Part shown: positions 10,948-51,435 of the stretch, piece after piece
How the letters are laid out: every line of letters begins with the position of its first letter
Position numbering within the stretch: position 1 is the stretch's first letter
Source: a virus
Taxonomy: Duplodnaviria > Caudoviricetes
Length of the DNA stretch: 64,000 nucleotides
Strand: one strand, 5' to 3'
IMG/VR virus record: IMGVR_UViG_3300025016_000004
Translations under genes and position numbers: made by a program
The notes under the pieces: generated by a model
Seen by the model: the letters and a program-made list of their open reading frames with translations, nothing else
What the model was told of the DNA's origin: nothing
The model's database searches: none

Positions 10948-11031
10948 TGCGGTGTAGTCAGTAGATGGAAGCTTGCGAGGCTCATAACCTCGTGCCGAAA
11001 GGCCCCACGGGTTCGAGTCCCGTTGCCGCTA
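10948..11031 (+). tRNA. trnM: tRNA-Met(CAT), initiator-like, with an extra variable-arm hairpin
   Basis: 1:72 mismatch; CGAGG-CTCATAA-CCTCG; GCC-GAAA-GGC variable arm. Confidence 0.85.
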
Positions 11032-11130: not shown

Positions 11131-11760
11131 ATGGAATGTTTAGTGTGCGAGTTAAAATTGGGTAAGGGTAGAAGAAAATTCTGTTCAGATGATTGTAGAA
11201 AACAAAATAGAATTTTACAATATAAAAAAACTGGTAATCCTAATTCTTATTCAAGACAAGTGTCTAAACATAGGTTTCGTAAATTTAATCTTATTGAGTT
11301 ACGTAATAATAAAGGGTGTGAAGAATGTGGTTATATTAAAAATATAAGTGCGTTAGATTTTCATCACTTAGTTCCAAAAGAAAAAGATTTTACGTTAGAT
11401 GCTAGAAATTTAGCTAATAGGGGTTGGGAAGAAATTTTAGTCGAATTTAGTAAATGTAAAATTCTTTGTGCTAACTGCCATAGAGAAGAACATAACCCAG
11501 ATTTAAATTTTAAGGATAGGATTAAATTTGATGAAATTGGTGAAAAAATAAAAAAAGAATCTAAATGTGTGGAATGTAATGTGAAAATTCATAATACCGC
11601 AAGTAGATGTAAAAAATGTTTTGACATGTCAAGACGAAAAAATGATAGACCAAGTAATGTAATATTGCTTGAAGATATTAAAGAATTAGGGTATAGTGGT
11701 ACTGGTAGAAAATATGGTGTTAGTGATAATACTATAAGAAAATGGGTTAAAAACTCATAA
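11131..11760 (+). CDS. HNH homing endonuclease with zinc ribbons and a C-terminal HTH
   Basis: LDFHH...KCKILCANCHREEH; stop lies inside the tRNA anticodon loop. Confidence 0.88.
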   Translation: MECLVCELKLGKGRRKFCSDDCRKQNRILQYKKTGNPNSYSRQVSKHRFRKFNLIELRNNKGCEECGYIKNISALDFHHLVPKEKDFTLDARNLANRGWEEILVEFSKCKILCANCHREEHNPDLNFKDRIKFDEIGEKIKKESKCVECNVKIHNTASRCKKCFDMSRRKNDRPSNVILLEDIKELGYSGTGRKYGVSDNTIRKWVKNS

Positions 11761-13301: not shown

Positions 13302-13306
13302 CAAAC

Positions 13307-16313: not shown

Positions 16314-16328
16314 CAGTTTTAAAAGACT

Positions 16329-16554: not shown

Positions 16555-16588
16555 ATAGTCCAGATAAAGTTCATACCCACACTTAAAT

Positions 16589-16656: not shown

Positions 16657-16702
16657 AACAAACACTTTTCAAAATTATTTTATATTTATATAAAAACATA
16701 TT

Positions 16703-17098: not shown

Positions 17099-17180
17099 TT
17101 GCGCTTCCCAACGACAGTTTACGGTATTTATTGATTATAGGTGATTTAGATTTATACTATTGCGATGAAGGAAAATAAAC

Positions 17181-17252
17181 GGACTTGTAGTTTAATTGGA
17201 AAAATCTGGCTTTCCTAAAGCTAAGACCTCAGTTCGACTCTGGGCGAGTTCA
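17181..17252 (+). tRNA. trnR: tRNA-Arg(CCT), followed by a 3'-half tRNA remnant
   Basis: TGGCT-TTCCTAA-AGCTA; extra T-arm at ~17262-17288. Confidence 0.75.
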
Positions 17253-17308
17253 CAACTCTAGATTCAGGTTCGAAGCCTGATGGAGTCACTAATATTAACA
17301 AAGTTTTT

Positions 17309-17611
17309 ATGAAGAAAAAAATTTTCTATAGGGTGGGTAATATTACCACTAATCAGGGGTTATGGTATAATATAGATGGTGAGTTCACAGGTCTTATTCA
17401 TAAAGAATTTAATTTTTGTAGAAATAATCTATTACCGATGCCATTTGATGAAAACATTATTGGTTATTTATCGTGTACTGATACATTAGAAAATTTATTT
17501 GAATGGTTTCCAAAAGAGGATATCGTTAGATTAGAAGAACATGGGTATTATCTTAGGGTTTATGAGTCAAAAGATTATAAATTTTACAATAACCATTGGA
17601 TATTTAATTAA
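17309..17611 (+). CDS. Hypothetical protein
   Basis: ORF track. Confidence 0.6.
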   Translation: MKKKIFYRVGNITTNQGLWYNIDGEFTGLIHKEFNFCRNNLLPMPFDENIIGYLSCTDTLENLFEWFPKEDIVRLEEHGYYLRVYESKDYKFYNNHWIFN

Positions 17612-17671
17612 TATAATGCAAAACTAATAAAAACGATTCCAATGGAATTACTTAAAACAAATTAATGAAAT

Positions 17672-18010
17672 ATGTACGAATATAAAGCAAAAATAACATC
17701 AGTTTATGATGGTGATACAGTTACAGCTGAAATAGACTTAGGGTTTAATGTAAAGATAACTGAAAAAATTAGATTACTTAGAATCAACACACCAGAAATA
17801 CGTGGCGCAGAGCGTGAACTTGGTTTAATAACTAGAGATAGGCTTAGAGAATTAATTCTAGATAAGGATGTGGCGATTCACACAATTAAAGATAAACAAG
17901 GTAAATATGGTAGGTATTTGGGTGAGATATTTTTAAGTACTGATGTGGAAACTATAAACATTAATGATTTGCTAGTAACTGAAGGGTTAGCTGAATATAA
18001 AGAATATTAA
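17672..18010 (+). CDS. Thermonuclease (SNase-like)
   Basis: VYDGDT..IRLLRINTPE...GKYGRYL. Confidence 0.88.
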   Translation: MYEYKAKITSVYDGDTVTAEIDLGFNVKITEKIRLLRINTPEIRGAERELGLITRDRLRELILDKDVAIHTIKDKQGKYGRYLGEIFLSTDVETININDLLVTEGLAEYKEY

Positions 18011-18083
18011 AACGTATGGTTGACCACAATACCTTAATTGTGGTAAATGGCGGCATAGCCGAGGGGGTCTTTATAAAATAAAT

Positions 18084-18162
18084 GCGGGTGTAGCCCCGTT
18101 GGTTTTCTAAACCGATAAGGGTAGCGGAGCTGAAAACGTGGGTTCGAATCCCACTGTCGTTA
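18084..18162 (+). ncRNA. Non-canonical tRNA-like RNA, no D-arm, anticodon TCT
   Basis: GTTGGT-TTTCTAA-ACCGAT; TAGCGG segment; T-arm. Confidence 0.6.
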
Positions 18163-18196
18163 CATATTTATTATTAAATAATTTACTTCCAAAAAT

Positions 18197-18234
18197 GGCG
18201 ATGTATTCCCCTAGTCTTCGAAACTAGAGAAGGA
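18197..18234 (+). pseudogene. 5' part of a non-canonical tRNA-like RNA (TCG)
   Basis: CTAGT-CTTCGAA-ACTAG flanked by TCC/GGA. Confidence 0.5.
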
Positions 18235-18244
18235 TTTTAAAAAT

Positions 18245-18324
18245 GGCGGTGTAACCGAGGTGGTCTTCGAAACCATTAAACGTAATTGGAGTTGTAAATA
18301 AGAGTTCGAATCTCTTGGCCGTCA
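18245..18324 (+). ncRNA. Non-canonical tRNA-like RNA, no D-arm, anticodon TCG
   Basis: GTGGT-CTTCGAA-ACCAT; CGTAATTGG segment; T-arm. Confidence 0.68.
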
Positions 18325-18374
18325 CAATAGTTATATCGAGTGCCTTAAACCGAATGTTAATCACAACTATTTAT

Positions 18375-18447
18375 GGCTCTATAGCATAGCGGATAATGCC
18401 ACTGGTTACGAACCAGTAGAGCGGGGGTTCGAATCCCTCTAGGGTCA
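18375..18447 (+). tRNA. trnR: tRNA-Arg(ACG), followed by a duplicated 3' half (~18455-18492)
   Basis: Canonical cloverleaf. Confidence 0.9.
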
Positions 18448-18508
18448 CTACAATAAACCAGCAATGGGGTTCGAATCCCTCTAGAATCACTATGGCACAT
18501 TTATTGGT

Positions 18509-22931: not shown

Positions 22932-24291
22932 GTGAACTACCCACCCACGCCAGAGGCGATGGGTTGGGCTTCTGATTTCACAGACTTGTGCTTCTTTATA
23001 GAAGTCTTATTTGAGTCTCCATCAGTGTTATCGAGCATCCCACCCGATATTATTTTTAAACCTTCTTTGAGAATATTTCTACTTGCATTTACATCTCTGT
23101 CGTGTATTACACCGCACGAGTTACAAGTCCATTCTCTATCAGAAAGTTTTAAATTTTGATTTATCCAACCACAGTCTCCACAAGTCTTCGAGCTAGGATA
23201 GAAACGATTAACTTTTACAAGTTCTTTTCCATACCAATCACACTTATATTGAAGTAATGTAACAAAATTACCCCAACTTGCATCGGCAATATGTTTTGAT
23301 AATTTGTGGTTTTTAATCATACCTTTTACATTTAAGTCCTCAACTGATATTAAATCATATTGATTAACCAGTTTATGTGAAACCTTATGTAAAGTGTCTA
23401 ATCTACAACTTGCAATTTTCTCGTGAATTTTAGCAACTTTGAGTTTTTGTTTTTCAAACCCATTACTACCTTTTTGTTTACGAGAAAGATGTTGTTGTGC
23501 TTTTTTTAATTGTTTTGCATATTTTTTTGTATATCTATTATTTTTGAATTTAGCATTATCAGAAGTAATTACAAAATCCTTTAAACCTAAATCTATTCCA
23601 ACTTGTTTATTTGTTTTAGGTAATTCTTTATTCTGTTGTTCTGTAAATATTGAAACATAATATTTACCTGTTGGTGTTTTGGTAATTATCATTTTACCAA
23701 TCTTACCTTTGACTTCTCTGTGAAGTTTAACTTTAATACCTTCTTTAAATTTTGGTATATTAATTTTATCTCCTTCTATACTACCAAATTGAGGTATGGT
23801 AAAAGTATTTTTATGTTTACGAGATTTAAACTTTGGGAATTGTGCATTACCTCTAAAAAAGTTTAAAAAAGCTGTATCTAAAGAGCGTAGAGCGAATTGT
23901 AAAGTTTGACTATTAACTTCTTTCAACCACATAGTCTTTTCTTCTTTTTTAAGTTTTGTCAAAGTGGCAGCTTGTTTGTAATAATTGTCAGACTTTTTAT
24001 CCGCTTGGTATTGTTCTTTGCGTTCATTTAGAAAATGGTTATACACCCAACGAGAGTGACCAAAGTGTTGATTTAATAGCACTTCTTGCTCATTTGTTGG
24101 AAAAAGACGAAACTTATATGTCTTATTAATCATTTTCATACCTATTATACATCAAAATTTATGCCAAAATATAGTTTTATGTAAATTTGTCATACTTAGC
24201 CGTTCAATATATTTTAAGCCAAGGTTAATCATACCTTTGTCGCTTACATCCCATCCACGCTTTGCGATGAATGGGTTTTACGCTCCTTTTT
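22932..24291 (-). mobile_element. tnpB-only IS200/IS605 (IS1341-like) element
   Basis: Left end after TTTAT, right end GTAGTTCAC, subterminal hairpins. Confidence 0.88.
22937..24139 (-). CDS. tnpB: TnpB RNA-guided nuclease, apparently intact
   Basis: HTH, GIDLG, VEDL, zinc finger, DRDVNA. Confidence 0.95.
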   Translation of the reverse strand: MKMINKTYKFRLFPTNEQEVLLNQHFGHSRWVYNHFLNERKEQYQADKKSDNYYKQAATLTKLKKEEKTMWLKEVNSQTLQFALRSLDTAFLNFFRGNAQFPKFKSRKHKNTFTIPQFGSIEGDKINIPKFKEGIKVKLHREVKGKIGKMIITKTPTGKYYVSIFTEQQNKELPKTNKQVGIDLGLKDFVITSDNAKFKNNRYTKKYAKQLKKAQQHLSRKQKGSNGFEKQKLKVAKIHEKIASCRLDTLHKVSHKLVNQYDLISVEDLNVKGMIKNHKLSKHIADASWGNFVTLLQYKCDWYGKELVKVNRFYPSSKTCGDCGWINQNLKLSDREWTCNSCGVIHDRDVNASRNILKEGLKIISGGMLDNTDGDSNKTSIKKHKSVKSEAQPIASGVGG

Positions 24292-26451: not shown

Positions 26452-27414
26452 ATGAAAATAGTTAAGGTAAAACATATTAAAGAGATAGAATGTGACTCTA
26501 AGAGGTATGATATTCAAACCAAAGAAACCAATAATTTCTTTGCTAATGGGATATTGGTACATAACTCATTGATTCAAGTATATTGGGATTGGGTAGCTGA
26601 AAAATGGTGTGCTGGCACATCTGGTATGGCCGAAGGTGAAGGTGAAGTAAATGATAAACCAAATACTAAGTTTTCTGAATTATTTTGGGATACAATTACA
26701 TCACCAAAATATGGTTTTAATTGGGATAGAATGGTTAGAGGTAGAACATATATGTTTGAATTAATGACACCGTATAATATTGTTGTTTGCCCACATGGAG
26801 AATCAAAAGTATCATTATTAGGTGTTAGAGATTTAGATACGTTAAATGAGTATGGTTTTAATGATTTATATACAATATCTACTGATATTGGGTTACCATT
26901 AGTTAAATCTTTTAACATTAATGCATCAAATGCTGGTCATTTAATGGCGACATTTGAAGGTATGTCATTCTCTGAAGAAGGTTATGTTGTAGTTGATGCT
27001 AATTTCAATAGAATCAAGTTAAAAAACCCAGCTTATGTTGCAATGCATTATACTAAAAGTAAATTAGGTAATCACCATATATTAGAGGTGTTAAAAACTA
27101 ATGAAGTTGATGAATGGATTGCAACGTTCCCAGAAAGGTCTGAAGAAATAATTCAACTTAAAGAAGGGTTAGTAAAATTGACTGATGATTTGGAAAATGC
27201 TTGGGTAGAATTAATACCATATAAACCTAAAAACATAACTAAACAAGAACAAAAGAGGTTTGCGATGAAAGTATTTGAAGTATCTAATAAACACTTCAAA
27301 AATACTCGTCACACTGGATTGTTTTTTGGGTTAAAAGATGGTAAAATTAACACGATTAGAGAATATATAATCAATATGAATAATAAAGATTTATATGAAA
27401 TATTAACAAAATAA
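26452..27414 (+). CDS. Split intein C-part plus RNA ligase (Rnl1-like) C-extein
   Basis: YDIQT..NNFFANGILVHN | SLIQVY; EEGYVV; RIKLKNP. Confidence 0.88.
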   Translation: MKIVKVKHIKEIECDSKRYDIQTKETNNFFANGILVHNSLIQVYWDWVAEKWCAGTSGMAEGEGEVNDKPNTKFSELFWDTITSPKYGFNWDRMVRGRTYMFELMTPYNIVVCPHGESKVSLLGVRDLDTLNEYGFNDLYTISTDIGLPLVKSFNINASNAGHLMATFEGMSFSEEGYVVVDANFNRIKLKNPAYVAMHYTKSKLGNHHILEVLKTNEVDEWIATFPERSEEIIQLKEGLVKLTDDLENAWVELIPYKPKNITKQEQKRFAMKVFEVSNKHFKNTRHTGLFFGLKDGKINTIREYIINMNNKDLYEILTK

Positions 27415-31234: not shown

Positions 31235-32062
31235 ATGGTAATTACAACATGGTGTGAATTAGTAAATGGTAGGTGGGGTTACTCAAAACACCTATCTAAG
31301 ATAAAATTTCCGATTAATATGGTTAAATGTGATGATTGTAATCACATATATAATGAAAGGTTTGATAAAACAAATAAAAGGTTTGAAAAAAATGAAAAAG
31401 ATTTGTGTAAAAATTGTGTTAAAGAGAAAGAAGCTAAAAGACTTTCAGAGGTAGGTAAAAAAGCTTTAAGTAAAATATCAAAAAAAGATAGAACCAAAAA
31501 TGCTAAATTGGGTGGTGAAGCATCATCTTTGAATCATAACAATTCTGGTAGATTTTCAACGGAAAGGTGGGAGTCTATGAGTAAAAAAGAGCAAAATAAA
31601 CAAGTAACAAGAGCAAATAAGGCATTACACGATAAATTAAATTCAGATGAAGAATTTAGATTAAAACATTATTTAAAGATTTTTAAAAATTCTAAAATTG
31701 GTTTTACATCTAAAGGTCATAATGAATTACATGATTTTTTAAAAGAATATGGATTTAAACAGCACCATGTAATAGATAAACTTGAGGTTGATGAATGTAA
31801 TGTTAATAGAAAAATCGTTGTGGAATATAATGGGGATTTATATCATTGTAATCCTAGAAAATATGATGGTGATTACTACAACACAGCAATTAAAATGATT
31901 TGCTCTGATAAATGGGAAAAGGATAGAAAAAGAACTTGGTTATTAAAAAGAAAGGGATATAAAGTTTTTGTTGTTTGGGAAGATGATTGGTATAAAAATA
32001 GGGAAAAAATTAAAAATAGATTAAATAAATTTATTAATAATGAAATTAAAAAAGATAAATAA
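31235..32062 (+). CDS. Free-standing Vsr-like/DUF559-type endonuclease between the intein halves
   Basis: VDECN..VEYNGDLYHCNP...D..R..L...GY.V..VWE. Confidence 0.78.
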   Translation: MVITTWCELVNGRWGYSKHLSKIKFPINMVKCDDCNHIYNERFDKTNKRFEKNEKDLCKNCVKEKEAKRLSEVGKKALSKISKKDRTKNAKLGGEASSLNHNNSGRFSTERWESMSKKEQNKQVTRANKALHDKLNSDEEFRLKHYLKIFKNSKIGFTSKGHNELHDFLKEYGFKQHHVIDKLEVDECNVNRKIVVEYNGDLYHCNPRKYDGDYYNTAIKMICSDKWEKDRKRTWLLKRKGYKVFVVWEDDWYKNREKIKNRLNKFINNEIKKDK

Positions 32063-32999
32063 AATAAAAGAAAGAAGGTCATTTGACCTTACGATACAAG
32101 ACACAAATTGTTTTTTTGTAAATGACATTTTGGTGCATAATTCAAATGCGGGTATTGGACATACTGAAAATGATGGTATTTGGGCACAATCTAGAAGTAA
32201 TATTATAACTCCTGAAAATGATAATATGGGGTTTGCAAGGTATGTTGAAGATAATAAACAAGCATTCCTTGAATTGGTTGAACATGTTAGATATGTAAAC
32301 CATAAGATTAACCCAAACGATACTGTTATTGTATTCGGTGAATGGGCTGGTAAAGGCATCCAAAAAGGAGTTGCAATATCTCAAATAGAAAAGTCATTTT
32401 TCATATTTGACGTAAAAGTTGTACCTGAAGATAGTACTAAACCATATCATTTAGCTTCTCACTATTTAAGAGATATTGACCATAGAATTTATAATGTTGA
32501 AGATTTCTTATCTTATGAAATCGAAATTGATTTTAATAGACCTGATTTGGCTCAAAATGAATTAAGTGAGATTACCATTGCAGTTGAAGAATTATGCCCC
32601 GTAGGTAAAGCTTTTGGTATTGAAGGAATTGGTGAGGGTGTGGTTTGGTGTGCAACGGTTGATGGTCATGATTACCGTTTCAAAGTGAAGGGTGAACGAC
32701 ATAGCGCATCTAAAGTTAAGACTTTAGCTAAAGTTGATACTGAGAAAATAAATTCTATCCATGAATTTGTTGGTTACGCTGTAACTCAAAATAGATTTGA
32801 ACAAGGTATGGGCATTATTTTCCCTAACGGAGATATTGACATTAAAAAAATGGGTGATATCATTAGATGGGTTGTGAATGATATTATGGCCGAAGAAAAG
32901 GATGTTTTAGAAGATAATAACCTCCAATCAAAAGATGTCAACAAATACATTTCAACAAAGGTTCGAGAACTCTTTTTAGAGGAATATAATAAACTTTGA
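32040..32999 (+). CDS. Split intein C-part plus RNA ligase (Rnl2-like) C-extein
   Basis: FDLTI..FFVNDILVHN | SNAG; FGEWAG; GEGVVW; FKVK. Confidence 0.88.
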   Translation: MKLKKINKIKERRSFDLTIQDTNCFFVNDILVHNSNAGIGHTENDGIWAQSRSNIITPENDNMGFARYVEDNKQAFLELVEHVRYVNHKINPNDTVIVFGEWAGKGIQKGVAISQIEKSFFIFDVKVVPEDSTKPYHLASHYLRDIDHRIYNVEDFLSYEIEIDFNRPDLAQNELSEITIAVEELCPVGKAFGIEGIGEGVVWCATVDGHDYRFKVKGERHSASKVKTLAKVDTEKINSIHEFVGYAVTQNRFEQGMGIIFPNGDIDIKKMGDIIRWVVNDIMAEEKDVLEDNNLQSKDVNKYISTKVRELFLEEYNKL

Positions 33000-42544: not shown

Positions 42545-43126
42545 ATGATGGAAGACGAGCAATTTGAGAAAGCTAAAAGATTTTTAAATGAGAAAAAAAT
42601 TCCCATATCTGAGGAAATTTTAAACTTATTTTTTAATGGTATTGAAAATGTGACAATAATCACTGAGGAAGACCTTAAAACAATTGATTTTAAAACTCTA
42701 GGTGATGCTGATGATATTAAAACAATATCAGGTACTGAGTGGGTAGCTTCTAGATTAATCTGGAATACCCTTGATGGACCAATATGTAGCGTTAATTTAA
42801 TTAAAATAGGCCAATTTAACCTTAAAAACCCCTTTGATATTATGAATGGATTATATTCCAATAAACCAAATTACCCATACGGTAAAGAAAATGTTATAGA
42901 TATTGATTACGAAGATATATTACCTTTACCATTTACAGAACAGTTAGCACTTGCAATAGAAGTTGAAGATTTTGAAGAAGCGGCAAGATTGAGAGACTGG
43001 GATACTGGTCTTAAAAATTTATTATTAAAATTAAAACCCCTAATACTAGACGCACTTAAAAAAGAAGATGTTACAAAATTAGACGATTATTTAACTCAAA
43101 TTAGGGATTACCGAAAAACATTATAA
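42545..43126 (+). CDS. Hypothetical protein with a UVR-like motif
   Basis: AIEVEDFEEAARLRD. Confidence 0.6.
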   Translation: MMEDEQFEKAKRFLNEKKIPISEEILNLFFNGIENVTIITEEDLKTIDFKTLGDADDIKTISGTEWVASRLIWNTLDGPICSVNLIKIGQFNLKNPFDIMNGLYSNKPNYPYGKENVIDIDYEDILPLPFTEQLALAIEVEDFEEAARLRDWDTGLKNLLLKLKPLILDALKKEDVTKLDDYLTQIRDYRKTL

Positions 43127-43485
43127 TGAAAGTTAGTTTTGATTTTGATAGTACGCTATCAACACCTTTAATTCAAAGGTTGGCTAAACGTCATATTAAA
43201 TATGGTGACGAAGTTCATATTACCACCACTAGGCAACATGAAGATGATAGTCTAGGGTTTACAAATGAGTATTTATATAAAGTGGCCAATAGATTAGGGA
43301 TTAAAAAAGAAAATATACACTTTACCAAATTTCAAGATAAAGTTCATTTTCTTAAAACATTCGATATGCATTATGATGATGATGAGCATGAAATCGATTT
43401 AATCACAAGGTCAGACCTACCATGCTTAGGTATTCTTATAAATTATAAGAATTATTACCTTGATAATGAGGAAGTTAAAAAATAA
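43126..43485 (+). CDS. HAD-superfamily-like protein
   Basis: SFDFDSTL; HYDDD. Confidence 0.7.
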   Translation: MKVSFDFDSTLSTPLIQRLAKRHIKYGDEVHITTTRQHEDDSLGFTNEYLYKVANRLGIKKENIHFTKFQDKVHFLKTFDMHYDDDEHEIDLITRSDLPCLGILINYKNYYLDNEEVKK

Positions 43486-43500
43486 TTTAAAAAAAAGTAT

Positions 43501-43557
43501 AAAAAAACTTGTTTTTTATTTAAACAATTACTATATTTGCACATATATATTAACAAG
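43501..43557 (+). promoter_or_regulatory. Promoter P2
   Basis: TTG 43509-11; TATATTTG 43532-39. Confidence 0.8.
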
Positions 43558-43626
43558 AGATAGGATAATACATCTGGACAAACCCAAATGGGAAAGGATT
43601 GAATCTGAACAGTCTCTTAAATAAAA

Positions 43627-43710
43627 ATGAAAATGAAAACTTTAGTAACTTTATTATCTTTATGTCTGTTGGTCGTGTGTACTGACACATCGAGTTATGT
43701 AATTACTTAA
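43627..43710 (+). CDS. Leader peptide 2: MKMKTLVTLLSLCLLVVCTDTSSYVIT
   Basis: 11 of codons 6-18 are L/V/C; antiterminator ACATCGAGTT at 43687-96. Confidence 0.85.
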   Translation: MKMKTLVTLLSLCLLVVCTDTSSYVIT

Positions 43711-43742
43711 AGGATTTATTTATATATTTTTTAAATTGTTAT

Positions 43743-43775
43743 AAAAGCTCGATGTTAACGCATCGAGCTTTTTTA
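43743..43775 (+). terminator. Attenuator terminator 2
   Basis: AAAAGCTCGATG-TTAACG-CATCGAGCTTTTTT. Confidence 0.9.
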
Positions 43776-43776
43776 T

Positions 43777-43861
43777 GCACTAGTGCTCCGAGTGGTCGAA
43801 GGGGGTGGTCTGCAAAACCGCCAGAGAAATCTCAACGTTGGTTCGAATCCAACCTAGTGCT
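43777..43861 (+). tRNA. trnC: tRNA-Cys(GCA) with a long variable arm
   Basis: GTGGT-CTGCAAA-ACCGC; U73. Confidence 0.9.
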
Positions 43862-43873
43862 CAAAATAAAAAT

Positions 43874-43959
43874 GCGGCCATAGTTCAGTAGGTCAAGAGC
43901 ACCACCCTTACAAGGTGGGGGCGAATAGTATAACGGGGGTTCGAATCCCTCTGGCCGCA
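43874..43959 (+). tRNA. trnV: tRNA-Val(TAC) with a long variable region
   Basis: CCACC-CTTACAA-GGTGG. Confidence 0.85.
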
Positions 43960-44019
43960 CAACAATTGTGAGGCCATCTGTTATGTTGCAACATAAAATG
44001 ATGGTCTGAATATCTAAAT

Positions 44020-44151
44020 GAGCGTATGGTGAAATTGGTAGCCACGGGGACCTAACCGTCTTAATGACTAGCCGCAGACTTGCCATCTGGGTTGAAGGGT
44101 GAACCCTCTGTTATAGGCATATACGTATAGGTTCGAATCCTATTGCAGTTA
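44020..44151 (+). pseudogene. tRNA-Leu-like gene with a ~55-nt structured insertion
   Basis: Leu-type D-arm and T-arm; inserted hairpins. Confidence 0.5.
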
Positions 44152-44164
44152 TTTAGATGATAAT

Positions 44165-44250
44165 GGGGATGTGGTGGAATTGGTAGACACGCTGGTTTTA
44201 AGCATCAGTGCCTCGAAAGGGGCGTGTGGGTTCGACTCCCACCATCCCCA
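44165..44250 (+). tRNA. trnL: tRNA-Leu(TAA)
   Basis: Type II cloverleaf. Confidence 0.92.
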
Positions 44251-44255
44251 CAATT

Positions 44256-44329
44256 GGCCCCATAGCTCAGTGGTTTAGAGCGTCTCTTTTACACGGAGAA
44301 GGTCTTAGGTTCGATTCCTAATGGGGCTA
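44256..44329 (+). tRNA. trnV: tRNA-Val(TAC)
   Basis: Canonical cloverleaf. Confidence 0.92.
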
Positions 44330-44493
44330 CATGAAAAATTGGAATAAAATAATAGCACCAAAAGTTGAAATGTCTATGAATGAATTGGTTAAAACAAAGT
44401 CATCAAATATAGAAGGTTATTTTGAAATAATAGAAAAATTAACATGTAGTAAAATAATAAAAAACGATAATAATATATCAATTTTTATGTAAG

Positions 44494-44570
44494 CACCCCC
44501 ATGGTGCACGTTGGAATGCACAACAGGTTTAAGCCCTGTCGTTTCGTGGGTTCGATTCCCACTGGGGTAC
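44494..44570 (+). tRNA. tRNA with anticodon TAA (Leu) but a short variable loop
   Basis: ACAGG-TTTAAGC-CCTGT; 6-nt variable loop. Confidence 0.78.
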
Positions 44571-44910
44571 AAAATTAAAATTATGGAAATTAGAATAACA
44601 AAAACTCCGTATTCAATATTTAAAGATGTTCCAAAAATTAACTATTTTTGGGTATATAGAAAATATAAATATGTGAAAGGGTTTCGTTTTAGGTTTTTTG
44701 GTTATAATTTTAACGTAACTGAAAATTTTGCAACATATAAATTAATCAATAAGTTTAAAAACAATGAAAACGCATACAATTGAAGTTTCGGAAGTTGACA
44801 TGAAAGGTTCTAAATATGAAATTAGTGAATGGCATAAACGAGTTGATGTTGTTAGGTGGGAACATGACTATGAAGATAAAATATATAGAATTACAATTAG
44901 AATAAAATAA

Positions 44911-44947
44911 CCCTCTATGCTGTACGTTGGAATTCAGCGTGGCTTTT
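44911..44947 (+). pseudogene. 5' half of a split tRNA-Leu
   Basis: CCCTCTA pairs with TAGAGGG at 45181-87. Confidence 0.75.
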
Positions 44948-44961
44948 ATTATTATTAAACT

Positions 44962-45048
44962 GCCCTTATGAGCAAAATGGCAAAGCTTGCTGGTTTAGAC
45001 CCAGTGGAAAACATAAGAAACGTTCTCAGTTCGACTCTGAGTAAGGGT
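44962..45048 (+). tRNA. trnL: tRNA-Leu(TAG)
   Basis: GCTGG-TTTAGAC-CCAGT; long variable arm. Confidence 0.88.
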
Positions 45049-45099
45049 ACAATCCGAAGTATTAATTTTAAAGTAAAAATAATTTAATTTTTCCTAACT

Positions 45100-45188
45100 G
45101 TTACGGATAACGCAATTAGAAAATGGATTAAAAGTTCTTTAAGTAAGTAGACCCCACGATTTCGTCAGTTCGATTCTGACTAGAGGGA
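45100..45188 (+). pseudogene. HNH C-terminal remnant (VTDNAIRKWIK) fused to the 3' half of tRNA-Leu(TAG), 45148-45188
   Basis: The remnant stop codon TAG is the anticodon. Confidence 0.75.
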
Positions 45189-45221
45189 CTTTGGAACTTT
45201 TGTACCTTTCTACATATTTAT

Positions 45222-45268
45222 ATTTTGGAGCGTAAAACCCATTGGTCTTTAGCTAATGGGTAGTTCAC
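45222..45268 (+). mobile_element. IS200/IS605-derived mini-MITE
   Basis: TTTAT flank; GAGCGTAAAACCC...GGGTAGTTCAC. Confidence 0.75.
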
Positions 45269-45538
45269 TGAAAATCTACACGCAATGGCCAAAGATTTAA
45301 ACATCAAACGATGTTGATTCCATAAGAATCACTATGATATACCAAAAAAACGTATTGAAGAAATTACCAAATAATGCACATTGGTATCCCCTAGAGATAT
45401 TCATAAAATAATACATAATCTATAATACTGGTATTTAGTCGAATAAGTTTTGTAGCTAAAATAATAACAATTATTTTAGCTAAACTATTGATTAATACTA
45501 TTTATTGAATATATTAGGTATATAAAATAATTAATATT

Positions 45539-45733
45539 ATGACACAAACAGAAAAAGCTGAAAGATTTGAAAGCTTAACAAGAGAAAGTGATGTTATCCA
45601 AAGGGAGATATCAAAATTACAATCAGCAAATGCTGGTATTAACACAACATCCGAAGAATACGATAATAAACTTAATCATTTAAGACATAGGTTATCAATT
45701 TTAGAACAAGAGATGGTAAAATTATTTATATGA
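45539..45733 (+). CDS. Small coiled-coil protein
   Basis: ORF track. Confidence 0.6.
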   Translation: MTQTEKAERFESLTRESDVIQREISKLQSANAGINTTSEEYDNKLNHLRHRLSILEQEMVKLFI

Positions 45734-46044
45734 ATCTAAATGAAAATTTAAACGAAGAATTAGTTGAAGCATTAAAAAATATCTACCCAATTAGAGAAAA
45801 TCTAAGGAAGGAGTTGTTAAAAACTTATGATGAAGAATTATTAGATAAATTAAATGCTTTGAATAAAATGATTGAGAATGCTGAAATTTTAATCAACAAA
45901 TCTCAAGATGTTAAAAAGTTTTATGCTGAACAATACCCTGATTATGTCGATGAAAACAATCATATCAACGAAATAGGTATAAATAGAATAAGCATTTTGA
46001 AAAAAAAATGGAAAAAATTAGGCTATCTAAAAAAGAATTCATAA
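45730..46044 (+). CDS. Hypothetical protein
   Basis: ORF track. Confidence 0.6.
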   Translation: MNLNENLNEELVEALKNIYPIRENLRKELLKTYDEELLDKLNALNKMIENAEILINKSQDVKKFYAEQYPDYVDENNHINEIGINRISILKKKWKKLGYLKKNS

Positions 46045-46070
46045 ATTAGCCGAATTAAAATTAGAAAAAC

Positions 46071-46520
46071 ATGAAAAAAACAGCCCTACTTGTATTATTA
46101 ATGTTGACATTAACCTTTAGTTTTGGACAAACCAATGGGTCAGTAATTATGAACGATTCACTTATTGTTCAATATCTTGAGGAATTCGTTGACGAAGCCG
46201 CCCAAAATGGCTACGATATTCAAGAACAATTATTAAGTAAAGTTAGTTATATACTAATAGCAAAAGAGGATAAGCAAATTGAAGGTTTATCTGAAATTGA
46301 TTTGAATAACAAATTAATCTTATTGGACCCCAAAGTTCGTTTAGATAGATTAATATTAAAAGCAAGGCTATATAGAGAGTTATGTCACGCTTTAGGTGTA
46401 CCATATGACACTGGTAGTGTTATGATGGATAGGGTTAAAGAAAAAGGTTTTTCTTATGTGGCATTTGATGATTCTGAAATACTTAGCATTGAATTAGGTA
46501 AAGTTCTGAAATTAATTTAA
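46071..46520 (+). CDS. Exported protein
   Basis: Signal peptide. Confidence 0.65.
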   Translation: MKKTALLVLLMLTLTFSFGQTNGSVIMNDSLIVQYLEEFVDEAAQNGYDIQEQLLSKVSYILIAKEDKQIEGLSEIDLNNKLILLDPKVRLDRLILKARLYRELCHALGVPYDTGSVMMDRVKEKGFSYVAFDDSEILSIELGKVLKLI

Positions 46521-46580
46521 AAAATCAAGGTTTTAATTAATTGAAAATCAAATAATTTAAAAATAATTTAAAAATAATTG

Positions 46581-46638
46581 CAAAAAAATTTGTTTTATAT
46601 TGAAACATTTACTATATTTGCACTATATATTAATAACG
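46581..46638 (+). promoter_or_regulatory. Promoter P3
   Basis: TTTG 46589-92; TATATTTG 46613-20. Confidence 0.8.
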
Positions 46639-46668
46639 GTATTAATAAAGTACCACAAAATAAAAGTA

Positions 46669-46764
46669 ATGAGAAACTTAATTAACATATTTGAAAACGA
46701 ATTTTTCGCAGCCGAGGCAGATTTTAGCTTGGGTAGGATGAGAATTGTCAAAAATGAAAGTTAA
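46669..46764 (+). CDS. Leader peptide 3: MRNLINIFENEFFAAEADFSLGRMRIVKNES
   Basis: 11 of codons 8-19 are F/E/A/D; antiterminator GGATGAGA at 46736-43. Confidence 0.85.
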   Translation: MRNLINIFENEFFAAEADFSLGRMRIVKNES

Positions 46765-46796
46765 GTTATTTAAAAAATAATAAAAACAATAAGACA

Positions 46797-46829
46797 AAAT
46801 CTCATCCAAATCGGATGAGATTTTTTTTT
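46797..46829 (+). terminator. Attenuator terminator 3
   Basis: AAAATCTCATCC-AAATC-GGATGAGATTTTTTTTT. Confidence 0.9.
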
Positions 46830-46838
46830 GTTATAAAC

Positions 46839-46911
46839 GGATGTGAGGTGTTGTAGGTAACATGCTTGACTGTCACTCAAGCGATTGCGGGTTCGACCCC
46901 CGTGACATCCG
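46839..46911 (+). tRNA. trnD: tRNA-Asp(GTC)
   Basis: CTTGA-CTGTCAC-TCAAG; G73. Confidence 0.9.
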
Positions 46912-46995
46912 CAAAATTAAATTTGATTATCATGGGATAAATAAAGAAGTGATTAAGAATTTCCTACTTAATCGAGATGAAACTGGAAGAGAGAT

Positions 46996-47254
46996 AATGT
47001 TCTATCCAGAAACAGGAAAAAAGTATTATATTGAATGGATAGGTGATGGTTATAGTAAATGGGGAGATTTCGACCCAGTAACTAAAAAATTCACTGGTAA
47101 TTATGGAACTAAATATAGAGGTTCAGTAACACCTAAAGAATCTGTAATCACTAAAGAGAATGGATTCAATGATATTCATGAAGGTAAAGGTTCAGCGTAT
47201 GAACACGTAAATTGGTTGCATAACCAATGGAAAAAAGAAAATGGTTATGGGTAA
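46996..47254 (+). CDS. Hypothetical phage protein
   Basis: 3' part of track ORF 46862; start placed after the tRNA at about MFYPETGKKY. Confidence 0.55.
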
Positions 47255-47423
47255 GATTGATAAAAAGAGAAATAGATTAATTGAGAGAATCAAAATGTTA
47301 GAAGATGAATTAACTTTATCTTTAACTAAAAAAACCTCTAATACTGTGGAAATTAATGTACCACTTCAACAAAGAAAGATTCAGGAGTTGAAAGAACAAT
47401 TAAGAGGGTTAATGTAACCCTCA

Positions 47424-47514
47424 AACAGTACCAGCGCATAACGGTTGGTGTACCTGACTGTCACTCAGGTTTGGTTTATCCATGTAGCGGGTTCGACTCC
47501 CGTTGTAGTTGCCA
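47424..47514 (+). tRNA. trnD: tRNA-Asp(GTC) with a long variable arm and encoded CCA
   Basis: ACCTGA-CTGTCAC-TCAGGT. Confidence 0.7.
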
Positions 47515-47575
47515 AAAATAAAACAAAGAATCATTGTTTTAACCCTTGTCGGGGAGGTTTTTAAATGGTTCATAA

Positions 47576-47646
47576 GGGGACTTCGAATAATGGTAGTTCG
47601 TATGGTTGAAGCCCATAAGGTAAGAGTTCGACTCTCTTAGTTCCCA
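47576..47646 (+). tRNA. trnF: tRNA-Phe(GAA)
   Basis: TATGG-TTGAAGC-CCATA. Confidence 0.85.
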
Positions 47647-47653
47647 CAAATTT

Positions 47654-47727
47654 GCTGCCGTAGTATAGCGGTCAAGTACACAAGGCTTTCAACCTTGCAG
47701 ACGCCAGTTCGAATCTGGTCGGCAGTA
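47654..47727 (+). tRNA. trnE: tRNA-Glu(TTC)
   Basis: CAAGG-CTTTCAA-CCTTG. Confidence 0.88.
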
Positions 47728-47738
47728 CAAATAATAAT

Positions 47739-47752
47739 GGTCGGGTAGAGCA
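47739..47752 (+). pseudogene. 5' fragment of a split tRNA-Phe
   Basis: GGTCGGG pairs with TCCGACC at 48446-52. Confidence 0.6.
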
Positions 47753-47830
47753 TAATAAGTTATTTGACATTTTGGTAGAATTTATTTTTTAAAAAATGTG
47801 TCTTTTAATAAAAACTTCATATTTATTAAT

Positions 47831-48322
47831 ATGAGTAGAGACGAAAAGATTATAGAAATGTATAACGCTGGTGAAACAGCCACAGTTATATCAAAAGAAT
47901 TAAAAATAGGTAGGAAAACAGTTTATAGAACTTTAGATAAGTTTAATATAACATTACATAAAAATAAACCTAATAATTGTCTAGTGTGTGGTAAGACATC
48001 TAAAAAGAAGTTATGTGGTACGTGTAACACTAATCTAAGGAGATATAGAGTCAAGAAATTAGCTGTTGAATATCTAGGTGGTGAATGTAAAAGATGTGGT
48101 TGGGAGGGTGATGTATCAGGATTTGATTTTCATCATAAAGACCCAAATCAAAAAGATTTTAATCCAAGTGGTTTAAACTTGGCTAATAAATCTTGGGAAA
48201 GGGGTAAAGAAGAATTGGATAAGTGTGAATTATTATGTGCACTGTGTCACAGATTAGAACATAGCACTTATGGGATTTTAGAAAAAATAAATTTAGAGTA
48301 TAAAGGTAAAACCTTTCTATAA
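47831..48322 (+). CDS. HNH homing endonuclease with an N-terminal HTH
   Basis: GFDFHH...LDKCELLCALCHRLEH. Confidence 0.88.
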   Translation: MSRDEKIIEMYNAGETATVISKELKIGRKTVYRTLDKFNITLHKNKPNNCLVCGKTSKKKLCGTCNTNLRRYRVKKLAVEYLGGECKRCGWEGDVSGFDFHHKDPNQKDFNPSGLNLANKSWERGKEELDKCELLCALCHRLEHSTYGILEKINLEYKGKTFL

Positions 48323-48395
48323 GGCTTGGTAACTCAGTTGGTAGAGTAGTGGACTGAAAATCCATATGTCACTGGTTCGATTCCAGTTCAAGCCA
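48323..48395 (+). tRNA. trnF: tRNA-Phe(GAA)
   Basis: Canonical; abuts the HNH stop codon. Confidence 0.92.
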
Positions 48396-48411
48396 CTATA
48401 CCAAAAAGTTA

Positions 48412-48453
48412 TTGAAGAACCATGTGTCGTTGGTTCGATTCCAACTCCGACCA
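48412..48453 (+). pseudogene. 3' half of a split tRNA-Phe(GAA)
   Basis: TT-GAA-GA-ACCAT...T-arm...TCCGACCA. Confidence 0.75.
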
Positions 48454-48545
48454 CAAATTGTGATAGTTAATCCTCTTATCTATGAAGTCTTAGGTAATGA
48501 AACTAGTCTCGGTAGACAATGTGCACATTGATTCTACCCAAATAT

Positions 48546-48617
48546 GGCCCATTCGTCTAATGGTTAGGACGACAGGTTTTCGACCTGTAAACGAGAGTTC
48601 GACTCTCTCATGGGCTA
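48546..48617 (+). tRNA. trnE: tRNA-Glu(TTC)
   Basis: ACAGG-TTTTCGA-CCTGT. Confidence 0.9.
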
Positions 48618-48649
48618 CAAGTTTGCAAACTAAGGTTATTAATTTCCTT

Positions 48650-48715
48650 GGGGGTATCGTCTAACTGGTTAGGATAGCTATTGGTAAGATATGGGTTCGA
48701 GTCCCATTGTTTCCA
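48650..48715 (+). pseudogene. Glu-type tRNA with a deleted anticodon arm
   Basis: D and T arms intact. Confidence 0.6.
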
Positions 48716-48726
48716 AAAAATTAATA

Positions 48727-48801
48727 TGGTTTATCGTCTAAATGGCAAAAGATACTGTGCGTGTCAGTACAGAGATGGAGGTTCGAGCCCTCCGAAAACC
48801 G
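48727..48801 (+). pseudogene. Asp-type tRNA with an 8-nt anticodon loop
   Basis: CTGTG-CGTGTCAG-TACAG; G73. Confidence 0.6.
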
Positions 48802-48808
48802 CAATATG

Positions 48809-48844
48809 GGGGGCACATGTACCAAGGCAAGGCGTTGGACATTT
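48809..48844 (+). pseudogene. 5' half of a split tRNA-Ala
   Basis: GGGGGCA pairs with TGTCTCC at 49622-28; GGACA pairs with TGTCC. Confidence 0.75.
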
Positions 48845-48891
48845 ACCTAAACTTATGTGGTCGTTTCGATTATTTTGTGATATTTATTAAT

Positions 48892-49533
48892 ATGAAAGAA
48901 TGTCCAAAGTGTGGTAATAACCACCATAAAAAGGGTAAGTTTTGTTCTAGGTCTTGTGCTAATAGTAGAACTTGGTCCAAAGAAGATAAAAGTAAAAAAT
49001 CTGAAATCGCTAAAAAATCTGAAAAAGTTTTATTGGCCAATCGTGACCCTGAAAGAAGAAAGAATCTCTCAATATCAGCAAAAGCCCAAGCAAAAGTTGG
49101 TAACATTAATTGGAGTAAATTACATACTAAAGATGTTATTAACAAGGCCTTAAAAACTAAAAAGCTTAAAAGGGAACTATGGTTAGATTCATTTGATAGG
49201 AGTGATAAAATTGAATACCGTAAAGCTTGTAAATTTAAATTTAGTCTTAATTCATACCCAGATAAATTTGATTTTTGGTTGATTGAAGAGTATGGCTGGT
49301 ATAAAGCTAAAAATATGGGTGACAATCCAAATGGGATAAGTAGAGACCATATGTACTCAATTAGTGAAGGATTTAAAAATGGTGTTGACCCGTATTATAT
49401 TAGTCACCCAGCCAATTGTAAATTAATGAGGCATGGTGAAAATAATAAAAAAGATGGTAAAAGTAGTATTAATCTAGAAGATTTAATAAAAAAAGTTAAT
49501 AAATGGGATAATAAATATGGGCCGTTAGCATAA
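48892..49533 (+). CDS. HNH homing endonuclease
   Basis: CPKC..FCSRSCA; SRDHMYS...HPANC...N; true start at 48892. Confidence 0.82.
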   Translation: MKECPKCGNNHHKKGKFCSRSCANSRTWSKEDKSKKSEIAKKSEKVLLANRDPERRKNLSISAKAQAKVGNINWSKLHTKDVINKALKTKKLKRELWLDSFDRSDKIEYRKACKFKFSLNSYPDKFDFWLIEEYGWYKAKNMGDNPNGISRDHMYSISEGFKNGVDPYYISHPANCKLMRHGENNKKDGKSSINLEDLIKKVNKWDNKYGPLA

Positions 49534-49591
49534 ATGGCAAATGCTCTTCATTTGCAATGAGGAAGATTGGGTTCGAATCCCAGCGTGTCCA
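49519..49591 (+). tRNA. trnA: tRNA-Ala(TGC), overlapping the HNH stop; acceptor stem imperfect
   Basis: CTTCA-TTTGCAA-TGAGG; G3:U70. Confidence 0.75.
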
Positions 49592-49629
49592 CAATGTCCG
49601 AGAGAAGGATTCGATTTCCTTTGTCTCCA
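49592..49629 (+). pseudogene. 3' half of a split tRNA-Ala
   Basis: CAA-TGTCC...AAGGA-TTCGATT-TCCTT-TGTCTCCA. Confidence 0.75.
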
Positions 49630-49765
49630 CAAACATTCTTTACTTATGAATATAATTTATTATATTATATTTATGAGTAAGGATTATCGAAAATTATACG
49701 AAACTACCCACGGTGAACTACCCACACACTAAAAAGATGTGTGGGCTTCCTGCACAACGCACAGC

Positions 49766-50884
49766 CTAATGGCTCACGTTAGCGTACAAAGGGTTGTCCC
49801 TAACCCCGAAATTCTTTATGTTATATGCAGCGTTTACATCTCTATCAATTGAATTACCGCACTTATCACAATCATAAGTTCTATCTAAAAGTTTTAAATC
49901 TTTCTTGTGGTTTCCACAGTTAGAACATACTTTACTGCTTGGTTCAAACCTTCCAATTACAACAAGATTTTTACCTTGCCATTCAGTCTTATATTCAAGC
50001 ATTGTTCTTAATTGTCGCCAACCCATATCAGATATTGCTTTAGCTAAATTATGGTTCTTAACCATATTACTAACAGACAAATCTTCCAATACAATTGTAT
50101 TATAAGATTTAACTAATTCAGTAGATATTTTGTGCAAGTAATCAGTCCTTTGGTTACGAATTTTTTCTTGCAGTAATGCTACTTTTAATTTTTGTTTTTC
50201 TCTATTTATTGAGTCTTTCTGTTTTCTTGCAAGGCTTCTTTGTTCAACTCTTAATCTTCTTTGTTGTGATTTAAAGAAGTTTTTATTTTCATATACTACA
50301 CCATCAGAAGTAATAGCTAAATCTTTAATTCCAAAATCAATACCAACAGATGTTTCAGTTTTAATTGATTTTTTCTTTGGTTTTTCGGTTTGAGTATCAA
50401 CCAATATTGAAACAAAATATTTACCAGTTACTGTTTTAGTTAATGTAACTCTTTTAGGTAAACCTTTAAATTCTCTGTGGTAATCAATAGCAACTTCTTT
50501 TAATTTAGGTAGCTTTAGTATTCCCTCTTTAAACGATATTTCAAATCCTTGTGGAAACGTAATTGACTGTTTGGAATACTTATTTTTAAATTTAGGAAAT
50601 TGACCTTTACCCTTAAAAAAGTTTTGATATGCTGTATCTAAATTGATTATGCTATGTTGTAATACTTGACTTGGACATTCTTTAATGTAGTCAAATTCTT
50701 TTCTCAATTCTGGAAGTTGTTTTATTAAATCATATTTAGATATTGATTTTTTATTTGAGGCATACGCAACAGTCTTGGTTTCCAACCCCAAATTATAGAC
50801 AAGTCTATTTACACCAAAATACCTTTGTAGTTGGTCTTTTTGGTCATCTGTTGGAAATATTCTGTATTTGTATCCTTTAAGCAT
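49766..50884 (-). CDS. tnpB: TnpB, apparently intact
   Basis: GIDFG, LEDL, zinc finger, DRDVNAA. Confidence 0.95.
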   Translation of the reverse strand: MLKGYKYRIFPTDDQKDQLQRYFGVNRLVYNLGLETKTVAYASNKKSISKYDLIKQLPELRKEFDYIKECPSQVLQHSIINLDTAYQNFFKGKGQFPKFKNKYSKQSITFPQGFEISFKEGILKLPKLKEVAIDYHREFKGLPKRVTLTKTVTGKYFVSILVDTQTEKPKKKSIKTETSVGIDFGIKDLAITSDGVVYENKNFFKSQQRRLRVEQRSLARKQKDSINREKQKLKVALLQEKIRNQRTDYLHKISTELVKSYNTIVLEDLSVSNMVKNHNLAKAISDMGWRQLRTMLEYKTEWQGKNLVVIGRFEPSSKVCSNCGNHKKDLKLLDRTYDCDKCGNSIDRDVNAAYNIKNFGVRDNPLYANVSH

Positions 50885-51030
50885 ATATTATTAAATAGTC
50901 TAAACTTTTGTAAAAGTACAATATTTTTATCTAAATCACAAACTTTGGTTAAAATTAATTTATTTCATACCGTATTTTGTTTAAATCATTCCGTCTTTGG
51001 TTGTAAATAATTTAAACAAAATACTACATT

Positions 51031-51435
51031 ATGCAATCAAATTACATTTCTACAAACCATTCAAAACATTATCTTAAAGCACATATTATATTGGTTACAA
51101 AATATCGTAAACCATTATTAGTTAATCAACTTAAAGAAGATATGTATGTAATATTCAACAACATCATAGATAATTCAGATTTTAATGTAGAGGTATTTCA
51201 AAGTGATATAGACCACATACATTTCTTAATTAGGTACATACCTCGTTTGTCTATATCTCAAATTGTACGTAGGTTAAAACAACAATCTACATATCATATT
51301 TGGCAATTACATTCAACATTGCTTCGTAGGGAGTATTGGTACAAAAGTATGTTTTGGTCAGCAGGGTATTTCGTTTGCTCTATTGGTGAAGCAAGTCCAG
51401 ATACTATTCGTCAATATATTTTAAGTCAAGGTTAA
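51031..51435 (+). CDS. tnpA: IS200-family HUH (Y1) transposase
   Basis: DHIHFL; FWSAGYFVCSIG; IRQYI. Confidence 0.95.
   Translation: MQSNYISTNHSKHYLKAHIILVTKYRKPLLVNQLKEDMYVIFNNIIDNSDFNVEVFQSDIDHIHFLIRYIPRLSISQIVRRLKQQSTYHIWQLHSTLLRREYWYKSMFWSAGYFVCSIGEASPDTIRQYILSQG

Follow-up and report, generated by a model that had tools for sequence, protein, structure and literature searches.

Probable homing-endonuclease cassettes that interrupt phage tRNA genes and carry a tRNA for the same amino acid

The window analyzed here, a stretch of 64,000 nt from a large, uncultured phage (IMG/VR record IMGVR_UViG_3300025016_000004), contains three tRNA genes, of the Leu, Phe and Ala types, each of which is broken into a 5′ and a 3′ stub by an insert that holds a nuclease gene, or the remnant of one, together with another tRNA gene. 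We consider it likely that these inserts are free-standing homing-endonuclease cassettes, each linked to a tRNA of the same amino acid as the tRNA gene that was disrupted. The proteins would cleave the intact allele, and the tRNA carried by the cassette would be immune. The three split layouts had been put forward by a sequence-only reading of this DNA, whose computationally testable predictions were all borne out, and all of them were recovered at the following positions.

44911..44948, + strand: 5′ stub of a class-II (Leu-type) tRNA, with acceptor CCCTCTA, D arm, 5′ anticodon-stem strand, then TTTA
44962..45049, + strand: whole tRNA-Leu(UAG) inside the insert, called by ARAGORN (Rfam 41.7 bits, every pair standard)
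45088..45150, + strand: HNH gene remnant found by tblastn, a 20-codon C-terminal helix-turn-helix tail
45151..45188, + strand: Leu-type 3′ stub, with variable region, T arm (45164-45180), acceptor TAGAGGG and discriminator A
47739..47752, + strand: Phe 5′ stub of 14 nt, with acceptor GGTCGGG plus TAG/AGCA; 12 nt of the D arm deleted
47831..48322, + strand: HNH homing-endonuclease gene (Pfam HNH and HTH_7, phrog_2255)
48323..48395, + strand: whole tRNA-Phe(GAA), abutting the HNH stop codon (Rfam 70.8 bits, top tRNA of the window)
48412..48453, + strand: Phe 3′ stub, with loop TTGAAGA, 3′ stem strand, variable loop, T arm, acceptor TCCGACC and discriminator A
48809..48844, + strand: Ala 5′ stub, with acceptor GGGGGCA, degenerate D region, anticodon-stem strand GGACA, then TTT
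48892..49533, + strand: probable divergent HNH-like nuclease gene of the phrog_23051 family, with N-terminal zinc ribbon and conserved C-terminal domain
49519..49591, + strand: tRNA-Ala(UGC), overlapping the last 15 nt of the nuclease open reading frame (ORF) (Rfam 37.7 bits, mismatches flagged)
49592..49629, + strand: Ala 3′ stub, with CAA, stem strand TGTCC, variable loop, T arm (orphan), acceptor TGTCTCC and discriminator A

As the sequence-only reading had claimed, the halves pair across each insert. At the Leu locus, the acceptor strands CCCTCTA and TAGAGGG form 7/7 Watson-Crick pairs, no other sequence within 3 kb than the 5′ stub forms 7/7 Watson-Crick pairs with the 3′ stub, and the chance of a match of this quality within 1 kb was 0.013 (2000 shuffles of the 1 kb upstream of each 3′ stub). 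The Phe strands GGTCGGG/TCCGACC give 6 Watson-Crick pairs and 1 G-U, and the Ala strands GGGGGCA/TGTCTCC give 5 and 2 G-U, with G3:U70 among them; the Ala anticodon-stem strands GGACA/TGTCC, described as broken at the loop, pair 5/5. Both the Leu 3′ stub, which has a perfect T stem, and the Phe 3′ stub are orphan T arms with partial nhmmer matches (model positions 47-71 and 31-72, respectively). The pairing of the Phe and Ala stubs is not proof by itself, and these two assignments therefore rest on their tRNA-like context and on the same layout in other phages (L002, L097, L138; L-numbered loci are viral-contig loci, L099-L177 being IMG/VR loci of the phrog_23051 family).

The product of the gene at 47831-48322 has an N-terminal helix-turn-helix, two CxxC pairs and an HH...H motif. 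It matches the Pfam HNH family PF01844 at 21.7 bits (cut-off 21.4) as well as HTH_7, and it matches phrog_2255 at 1.2e-21. Every residue invariant in the family (alignment A1) is kept, namely C97, C100, H112, H113, C147, C150, H151 and H155. The start at ATG 47831 agrees with the starts of the homologues, the frame being open from GTG 47798. Judged from its sequence, the gene is predicted to encode an HNH (His-Me finger) endonuclease. The remnant at the Leu locus shares 9 of its 13 last residues with the C-terminus of another HNH protein of the window (11131-11760; tblastn), and at both loci the HNH tail directly precedes a tRNA 3′ stub. The gene order differs at the Leu locus in that the tRNA comes ahead of the nuclease remnant.

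The ORF at 48892-49533 matches phrog_23051 at 6e-36 and belongs to a family of >365 homologues, in which the N-terminal DNA-binding parts are variable and the C-terminal domain is conserved; D152, H153, N175 and N184 are invariant in 30 homologues. Neither a Pfam match nor a PDB profile match was obtained for it, and the RecA-repeat and other weak matches returned by PDB sequence searches were rejected as spurious. An AlphaFold model (pLDDT 86) gave only HNH domains as top fold matches, all of them weak (Foldseek E at least 0.46, probability 0.54; superposition Z at most 3.9, rmsd 3.5-3.7 over 68-84 residues), with nothing at E ≤0.001 in the fold search. The model suggests that the protein is a probable divergent HNH-like nuclease. 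Thus, the earlier description of each insert as holding an HNH gene or its remnant stands for the Phe gene and the Leu tail, and becomes probable HNH-like for the Ala ORF, which lacks a Pfam HNH match. In the same way, the claim of an intact tRNA with the same anticodon is right for Phe; for Ala, the acceptor stem of the tRNA is damaged, and for Leu, the anticodon is UAG in the whole tRNA but legible only as UA- in the broken one. The latter was possibly UAA, the anticodon obtained by joining the Leu halves varying with the junction chosen.

Two viral contigs present both states of one homologous site. Contig L092 carries an intact tRNA-Phe at 679-751 (the empty site) and aligns with L002 at 98.6% identity over 703 nt on the left and at 93% over 250 nt on the right. 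In L002, nt 1-26 and 44-76 of the same tRNA-Phe are kept, and the 17-nt anticodon arm is replaced by ~660 nt containing a foreign, very different tRNA-Phe and an HNH gene whose product is 52% identical to the Phe HNH of the window. A deletion in L002 could not recreate the missing anticodon arm, and the occupied state is therefore the derived one. The presence or absence of the nuclease in near-identical genomes is in this way observed for a 52%-identical homologue. Independent deletions, which the sequence-only reading had named as grounds for abandoning its proposal, were examined through this pair, and it favours insertion. In the window, a small ORF (46685-46764) with the run FFAAEAD.SLGR, followed by a terminator-like hairpin, precedes the Asp/Phe/Glu/Ala tRNA block. 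Homologues of it, rich in Phe/Ala/Glu/Asp codons, stand before the tRNA block in the two contigs (L092:448-537 and L002:5586-5655). As the small ORF is common to the window, L092 and L002, their tRNA blocks are related.

Split resident tRNA genes were found at other loci as well, for Phe (L002/L010, L017, L018), Met (L083) and Ala (L097 and L138, the 5′ stub of L138 stopping right after U33), beside tRNA-Cys cassettes (L122, L166), and at L085, where no isotype is assigned. The acceptor strands pair 7/7 in the unrelated contigs L002, L083, L085, L122 and L166, and the acceptor stems of the resident genes differ across the split loci. One layout with different resident acceptor stems indicates repeated insertions and not one inherited scar. 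Over these loci, 5′ stubs end at nt 26 to 34 and 3′ stubs start at nt 32 to 44; the breaks lie in the anticodon arm, in agreement with the break site first proposed, and the T arms of all stubs at the three loci of the window are intact. Some loci have a 5′ stub alone (L001, L011, L020) or a 3′ stub alone (L022 and the Met locus of the window), which is the outcome expected from one-sided non-homologous joining.

The Met locus constitutes a fourth case, outside the three loci first described, and comprises the following features (unit 10948-11795).

10948..11031, + strand: tRNA-Met(CAU)
11131..11760, + strand: HNH gene (phrog_2255)
to 11795, + strand: tRNA-Met 3′ stub, with loop CTCATAA, T arm (11770-11786) and acceptor strand

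The stop codon of the HNH gene falls within the stub loop CTCATAA, and a matching 5′ stub was not found at this locus. In a maximum-likelihood tree, its HNH protein groups with those of L083 and L085, whose genes lie inside split tRNAs with 7/7 Watson-Crick acceptor pairing.

A second line of evidence comes from the isotype of the tRNA genes that adjoin the nuclease genes, and it bears out the proposed tie of each nuclease to one isotype. The five close IMG/VR relatives of the Phe HNH all adjoin tRNA-Phe(GAA) (5/5). The family alignment brought in 80 further HNH loci; tRNA-Phe(GAA) is a direct neighbour in 13/15 of the closest HNH loci vs 4/101 of the remaining tRNAs at the same loci, and tRNA-Ala(UGC) in 31/63 IMG/VR loci of the phrog_23051 family vs 14/324 in the background, these counts including related loci that are not phylogenetically independent and the pattern tracking the nuclease tree. 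The window Phe enzyme falls in a supported clade of Phe-linked genes in the maximum-likelihood tree, and the more distant HNH branches are found next to Asn, Arg, Cys or Met genes, the two flanking tRNAs often being of one isotype. In the phrog_23051 family, tRNA-Cys(GCA) is the neighbour at 12 of the 63 loci. Homologues of the Ala nuclease that are 60-69% identical overlap a well-paired tRNA-Ala(UGC) by 14-15 nt in 3/4 contigs (L093, L094, L097), and in L097 the tRNA-Ala is followed by a 3′ stub whose acceptor strand is identical to that of the window Ala stub. The Ala(UGC) and Cys(GCA) anticodon loops both contain TGCA, and the Ala loop TTGCAA is a palindrome; TGCA may be the recognition core of this family.

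The duplicate tRNAs of the window are highly divergent in sequence, as had been proposed for the carried tRNA, and were therefore imported and not copied in place. In the Phe clade, all 5′ stubs (7/7) have GCTC/GAGC as their D stem and end at nt 26 or close to it, a comparison limited by the stub detector, which favoured canonical D arms. The D stem is ACTC/GAGT, not GCTC/GAGC, in the cassette tRNA-Phe of the window, as it is in the cassette alleles of L001 and L004; others differ in the D arm or in the anticodon stem. A recognition site spanning the junction of the D stem and the anticodon stem would fit these differences and is offered as a lead.

Taken together, these data can be arranged in the following scenario. 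The nuclease would cut a resident tRNA gene of one isotype, in or beside the anticodon arm. Repair would then copy the nuclease gene and the adjoining tRNA from the cassette-bearing genome, and non-homologous joining at one or both ends would leave behind what we see as 5′ and 3′ stubs, the two outer portions of the resident gene. The co-transferred tRNA, divergent around the break and presumably immune and functional, would restore decoding with no need for splicing. The window captures this process at different ages in its Phe, Ala, Leu and Met units. In the Phe unit the nuclease is complete, the tRNA is good and the stubs are truncated; in the Ala unit the nuclease is complete and the acceptor stem of the tRNA is damaged; in the Leu unit the nuclease is down to its last 20 codons. 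A broader proposal, which we hold tentatively, is that each nuclease lineage reads the anticodon-arm region of one isotype and always travels with a tRNA of this isotype that it cannot cut. It would then act as a natural cleave-and-rescue drive for RNA genes, and as a main engine of tRNA gain, replacement and decay in large phages.

Other explanations have to be weighed against this scenario. The two halves could be the exons of a working gene, the insert being removed as an intron or the halves being joined by phage RNA ligases. Group I introns with endonuclease genes do occur in bacterial tRNA anticodon loops (PMC3984707), RNA-ligase-like proteins and a CCA-adding enzyme are encoded by the phage, and the insert ends of L017 form a 20-bp helix with no spare tRNA-Phe nearby. 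Against this, Rfam gave tRNAs only and neither intron nor ribozyme (at E up to 1 over positions 43000-51000, and at gathering score over the whole window), and the inserts have too little non-coding sequence to accommodate a ribozyme core. Also, most of the D arm is gone from the Phe 5′ stub, the whole anticodon arm is absent in L002 relative to L092, and no junction of the joined halves gave a tRNA call (Phe, 0/783; Ala, 0/240). With no ribozyme, a lost Phe D arm and failed joins, the stubs are therefore the remains of destroyed genes, and we regard exons as the least probable of the explanations considered. The nucleases are free-standing, their ORFs being complete with their own starts and outside any self-splicing intron. 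The claim that no splicing is needed is upheld, since a splicing apparatus was not found and the halves do not rejoin into a tRNA.

It is also very improbable that unrelated, decaying tRNA pieces flank by chance nuclease genes that use the array as a safe site, although the ~20 orphan T arms of the window, the frequency of 7-nt acceptor matches and the Ala pairing (0.43) speak for it. When G-U pairs were allowed, a loose 7-mer search of 60 loci gave 11 matches vs ~8 expected from shuffled controls, and loose acceptor pairing was therefore not relied on alone as a detector. However, the Leu strands pair 7/7 by Watson-Crick rules (0.013), the 5′ partners lie in a tRNA-like context and the Ala anticodon-stem strands pair too, and chance would have to produce both the layout that recurs with 7/7 pairing in five unrelated contigs (L002, L083, L085, L122, L166) and the empty and occupied sites of L092 and L002. 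Somewhat better placed, but still unlikely, is the explanation that the nucleases cut tRNA genes generally, in the manner of SegB, with stubs and same-isotype neighbours as by-products of break-induced recombination and segmental duplication. SegB has many tRNA genes as targets and causes tRNA plus segB to be amplified in tandem (PMC2330249; PMC13096335), and the window contains a GIY-YIG gene with a duplicated 3′ end (9795-10541), duplicated Asp/Phe/Glu sets and many orphan tRNA pieces. Yet SegB has no isotype preference, whereas the linkage seen here is restricted by isotype and matches the nuclease phylogeny; it is the anticodon arm and not the T arm that is broken; the paired tRNAs are too divergent for local duplicates; and L002 has a foreign tRNA-Phe where L092 has the resident alone.

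Several observations weigh against homing cassettes as the explanation of these particular loci. The chance of an acceptor match of the Phe quality was 0.10, which is marginal, and it reached 0.43 for Ala. Three pairs at the base of the acceptor stem are mismatched in the whole tRNA-Ala (49519-49591), which ARAGORN does not call, so that this spare tRNA is probably impaired and rescue is not maintained at the Ala locus. The first 20 nt of the Ala 5′ stub are nearly identical to the sequence 5′ of the homologous nuclease gene in L097, and similar in L093; this stub may thus travel with the cassette and stem from no local resident gene. A canonical D arm is present in the cassette tRNA-Phe of L011 (downstream copy), L016, L019 and L020. 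The uninterrupted allele asked for by the sequence-only reading was found for a homologous cassette (L092), but exact-pattern scans of viral contigs returned none for the Phe and Leu stubs of the window; with no relative of the window phage carrying it, the insertion event is documented for homologous cassettes but not for the three loci themselves. Finally, the window contains many other orphan T arms and tRNA-like units, several of full length that escape tRNA finders, and some stubs could stem from other rearrangements.

The ends of the inserts show some further features. At the Phe locus, an 8-nt direct repeat, AAGTTATT, lies at both insert junctions (47757-47764 and 48406-48413) and may be a target duplication or derive from the cassette ends. 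The insert ends 47767-47781 and 48395-48409 pair weakly (13/300 shuffles as good, a marginal result). In L017 (2930-3570), an HNH gene is all that interrupts the tRNA-Phe, a whole tRNA-Phe being absent within 3 kb, and the insert ends carry a 20-bp inverted repeat (-23.5 kcal/mol) that 0/300 shuffles reach. Terminal inverted repeats were dropped as a general feature of the inserts, being strong only in L017. Four intact tRNA-Phe genes of metagenome arrays share the first 10 nt of the window Phe 5′ stub and the T arm and acceptor of its 3′ stub; they were rejected as an empty site, as the arrays are unrelated.

The window has ~30% G+C and its genes lie almost all on the + strand. ARAGORN found 33 tRNAs and Rfam 35, grouped in three clusters, and the phage also encodes a DNA ligase, a PARP-like protein, a sigma-70 factor and two TnpB proteins. 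Its sequence is present in 24 groundwater or aquifer metagenome runs, each of them possibly its source. No close phage was found in INPHARED, and the flanking protein 42545-43126 had no relative among viral contigs. The orphan T arms with perfect stems (~20, at 8978-18489, 44127 and 59951), many of which have their own 5′ acceptor strand at the normal distance, are either pseudogenes or non-canonical tRNA-like RNAs missed by ARAGORN. Two degenerate tRNA-like units, at 48650-48715 (Rfam 35.3 bits) and 48728-48801, separate tRNA-Glu from the Ala 5′ stub; their D arms are of the Glu/Asp type and their anticodon arms are destroyed. An IS200/IS605 pair (49766-51435; TnpB on the minus strand, Y1 TnpA on the plus strand) begins ~140 nt past the Ala 3′ stub, the second TnpB being at 22937-24139.

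In the first tRNA cluster, the GIY-YIG homing endonuclease gene (9795-10541) belongs to phrog_314; its last ~15 nt and the next ~40 nt (10527-10582) recur at 10810-10866, directly 5′ of a degenerate tRNA-like unit (10869-10940; Rfam 40.2 bits). A tRNA-Asn with an odd D arm (12199-12272) directly follows the canonical 5′ part of a tRNA (acceptor strand plus D arm TAGCTCAGTTGGTTAGAGC; region 12168-12272), and a second tRNA-Asn, of 88 nt, is at 11893-11980. Other unusual tRNAs are tRNA-Cys(GCA) and tRNA-Val(UAC) (43777-43959), with an insertion of 12-13 nt in each variable region, and tRNA-Asp (47427-47511), with a length of 85-91 nt and only 28.1 bits. The RNA-ligase-like ORFs 26452-27414 and 32040-32999 start with weak Pfam matches, below cut-off, to the C-terminal intein splicing domain, and these genes may be interrupted by inteins.

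The usual view is that homing endonucleases spare their host only by residing in an intron, an intein or an intergenic site. The layout described here represents another route, in which an RNA gene is occupied, a substitute is brought along and an intron is not needed. It offers a concrete way in which the tRNA arrays of big phages turn over fast, acquire duplicates and fill with pseudogenes, it predicts natural nucleases with tRNA-gene-specific recognition sites, and it bears on how phages renew tRNAs attacked by host defences. A full-text literature search returned no paper with a nuclease gene inside a tRNA gene plus a same-isotype spare, and the papers searched contain no description of split resident genes, of linkage to one isotype or of empty-site pairs. 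HNH genes are present in the tRNA arrays of T5-like phages, and T5 has the F-Tfl nicking enzymes. In mycobacteriophages, HNH genes within tRNA arrays are a suspected source of tRNA repertoire diversity, the accessible parts of these reports noting adjacency alone (Pope et al. 2014, cited in PMC5966550 and PMC6409571).

Among known systems, intronless homing comes nearest, its example in tRNA clusters being T4 SegB. SegB of T4/T6 is a free-standing GIY-YIG homing endonuclease of the tRNA gene cluster (PMC2330249; PMC13096335). As in our loci, its gene lies among phage tRNA genes, it cuts inside them, it is co-inherited with neighbouring tRNAs and it reshapes the array. However, SegB reads the T-arm motif GGTTCRANTCC of all tRNAs and lies between genes, whereas the genes described here are HNH-type (probably so at the Ala locus), tied to one isotype per lineage and located inside the broken tRNA gene, and a same-isotype tRNA travels with them. 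We therefore do not class the three loci as SegB-like tRNA-cluster endonucleases. Nor are they group I introns in tRNA genes (PMC3984707), with which they share the anticodon loop or arm as target and the same selfish logic, since here there is neither ribozyme nor splicing, the exons are damaged and the insert carries a complete tRNA gene. Intronless homing and "transposition" of free-standing endonucleases into genes are known from SegE/F/G, from mobE in nrdA of Aeromonas phage Aeh1 and from mobA in T4 gene 60/39 (PMC2988022). Protein genes split in the mobE/mobA manner stay functional, as the two polypeptides reassemble; in the present case the split RNA gene is lost, and the second copy delivered with the nuclease would supply the function. 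In ClvR-type synthetic drives, engineered in insects with Cas9, the nuclease destroys an essential locus and is linked to a recoded, uncuttable copy. The loci of this phage resemble them in joining a nuclease that destroys a locus to a spare copy, and differ in being natural, protein-guided and directed at phage tRNA genes, with a rescue copy that would likewise be immune.

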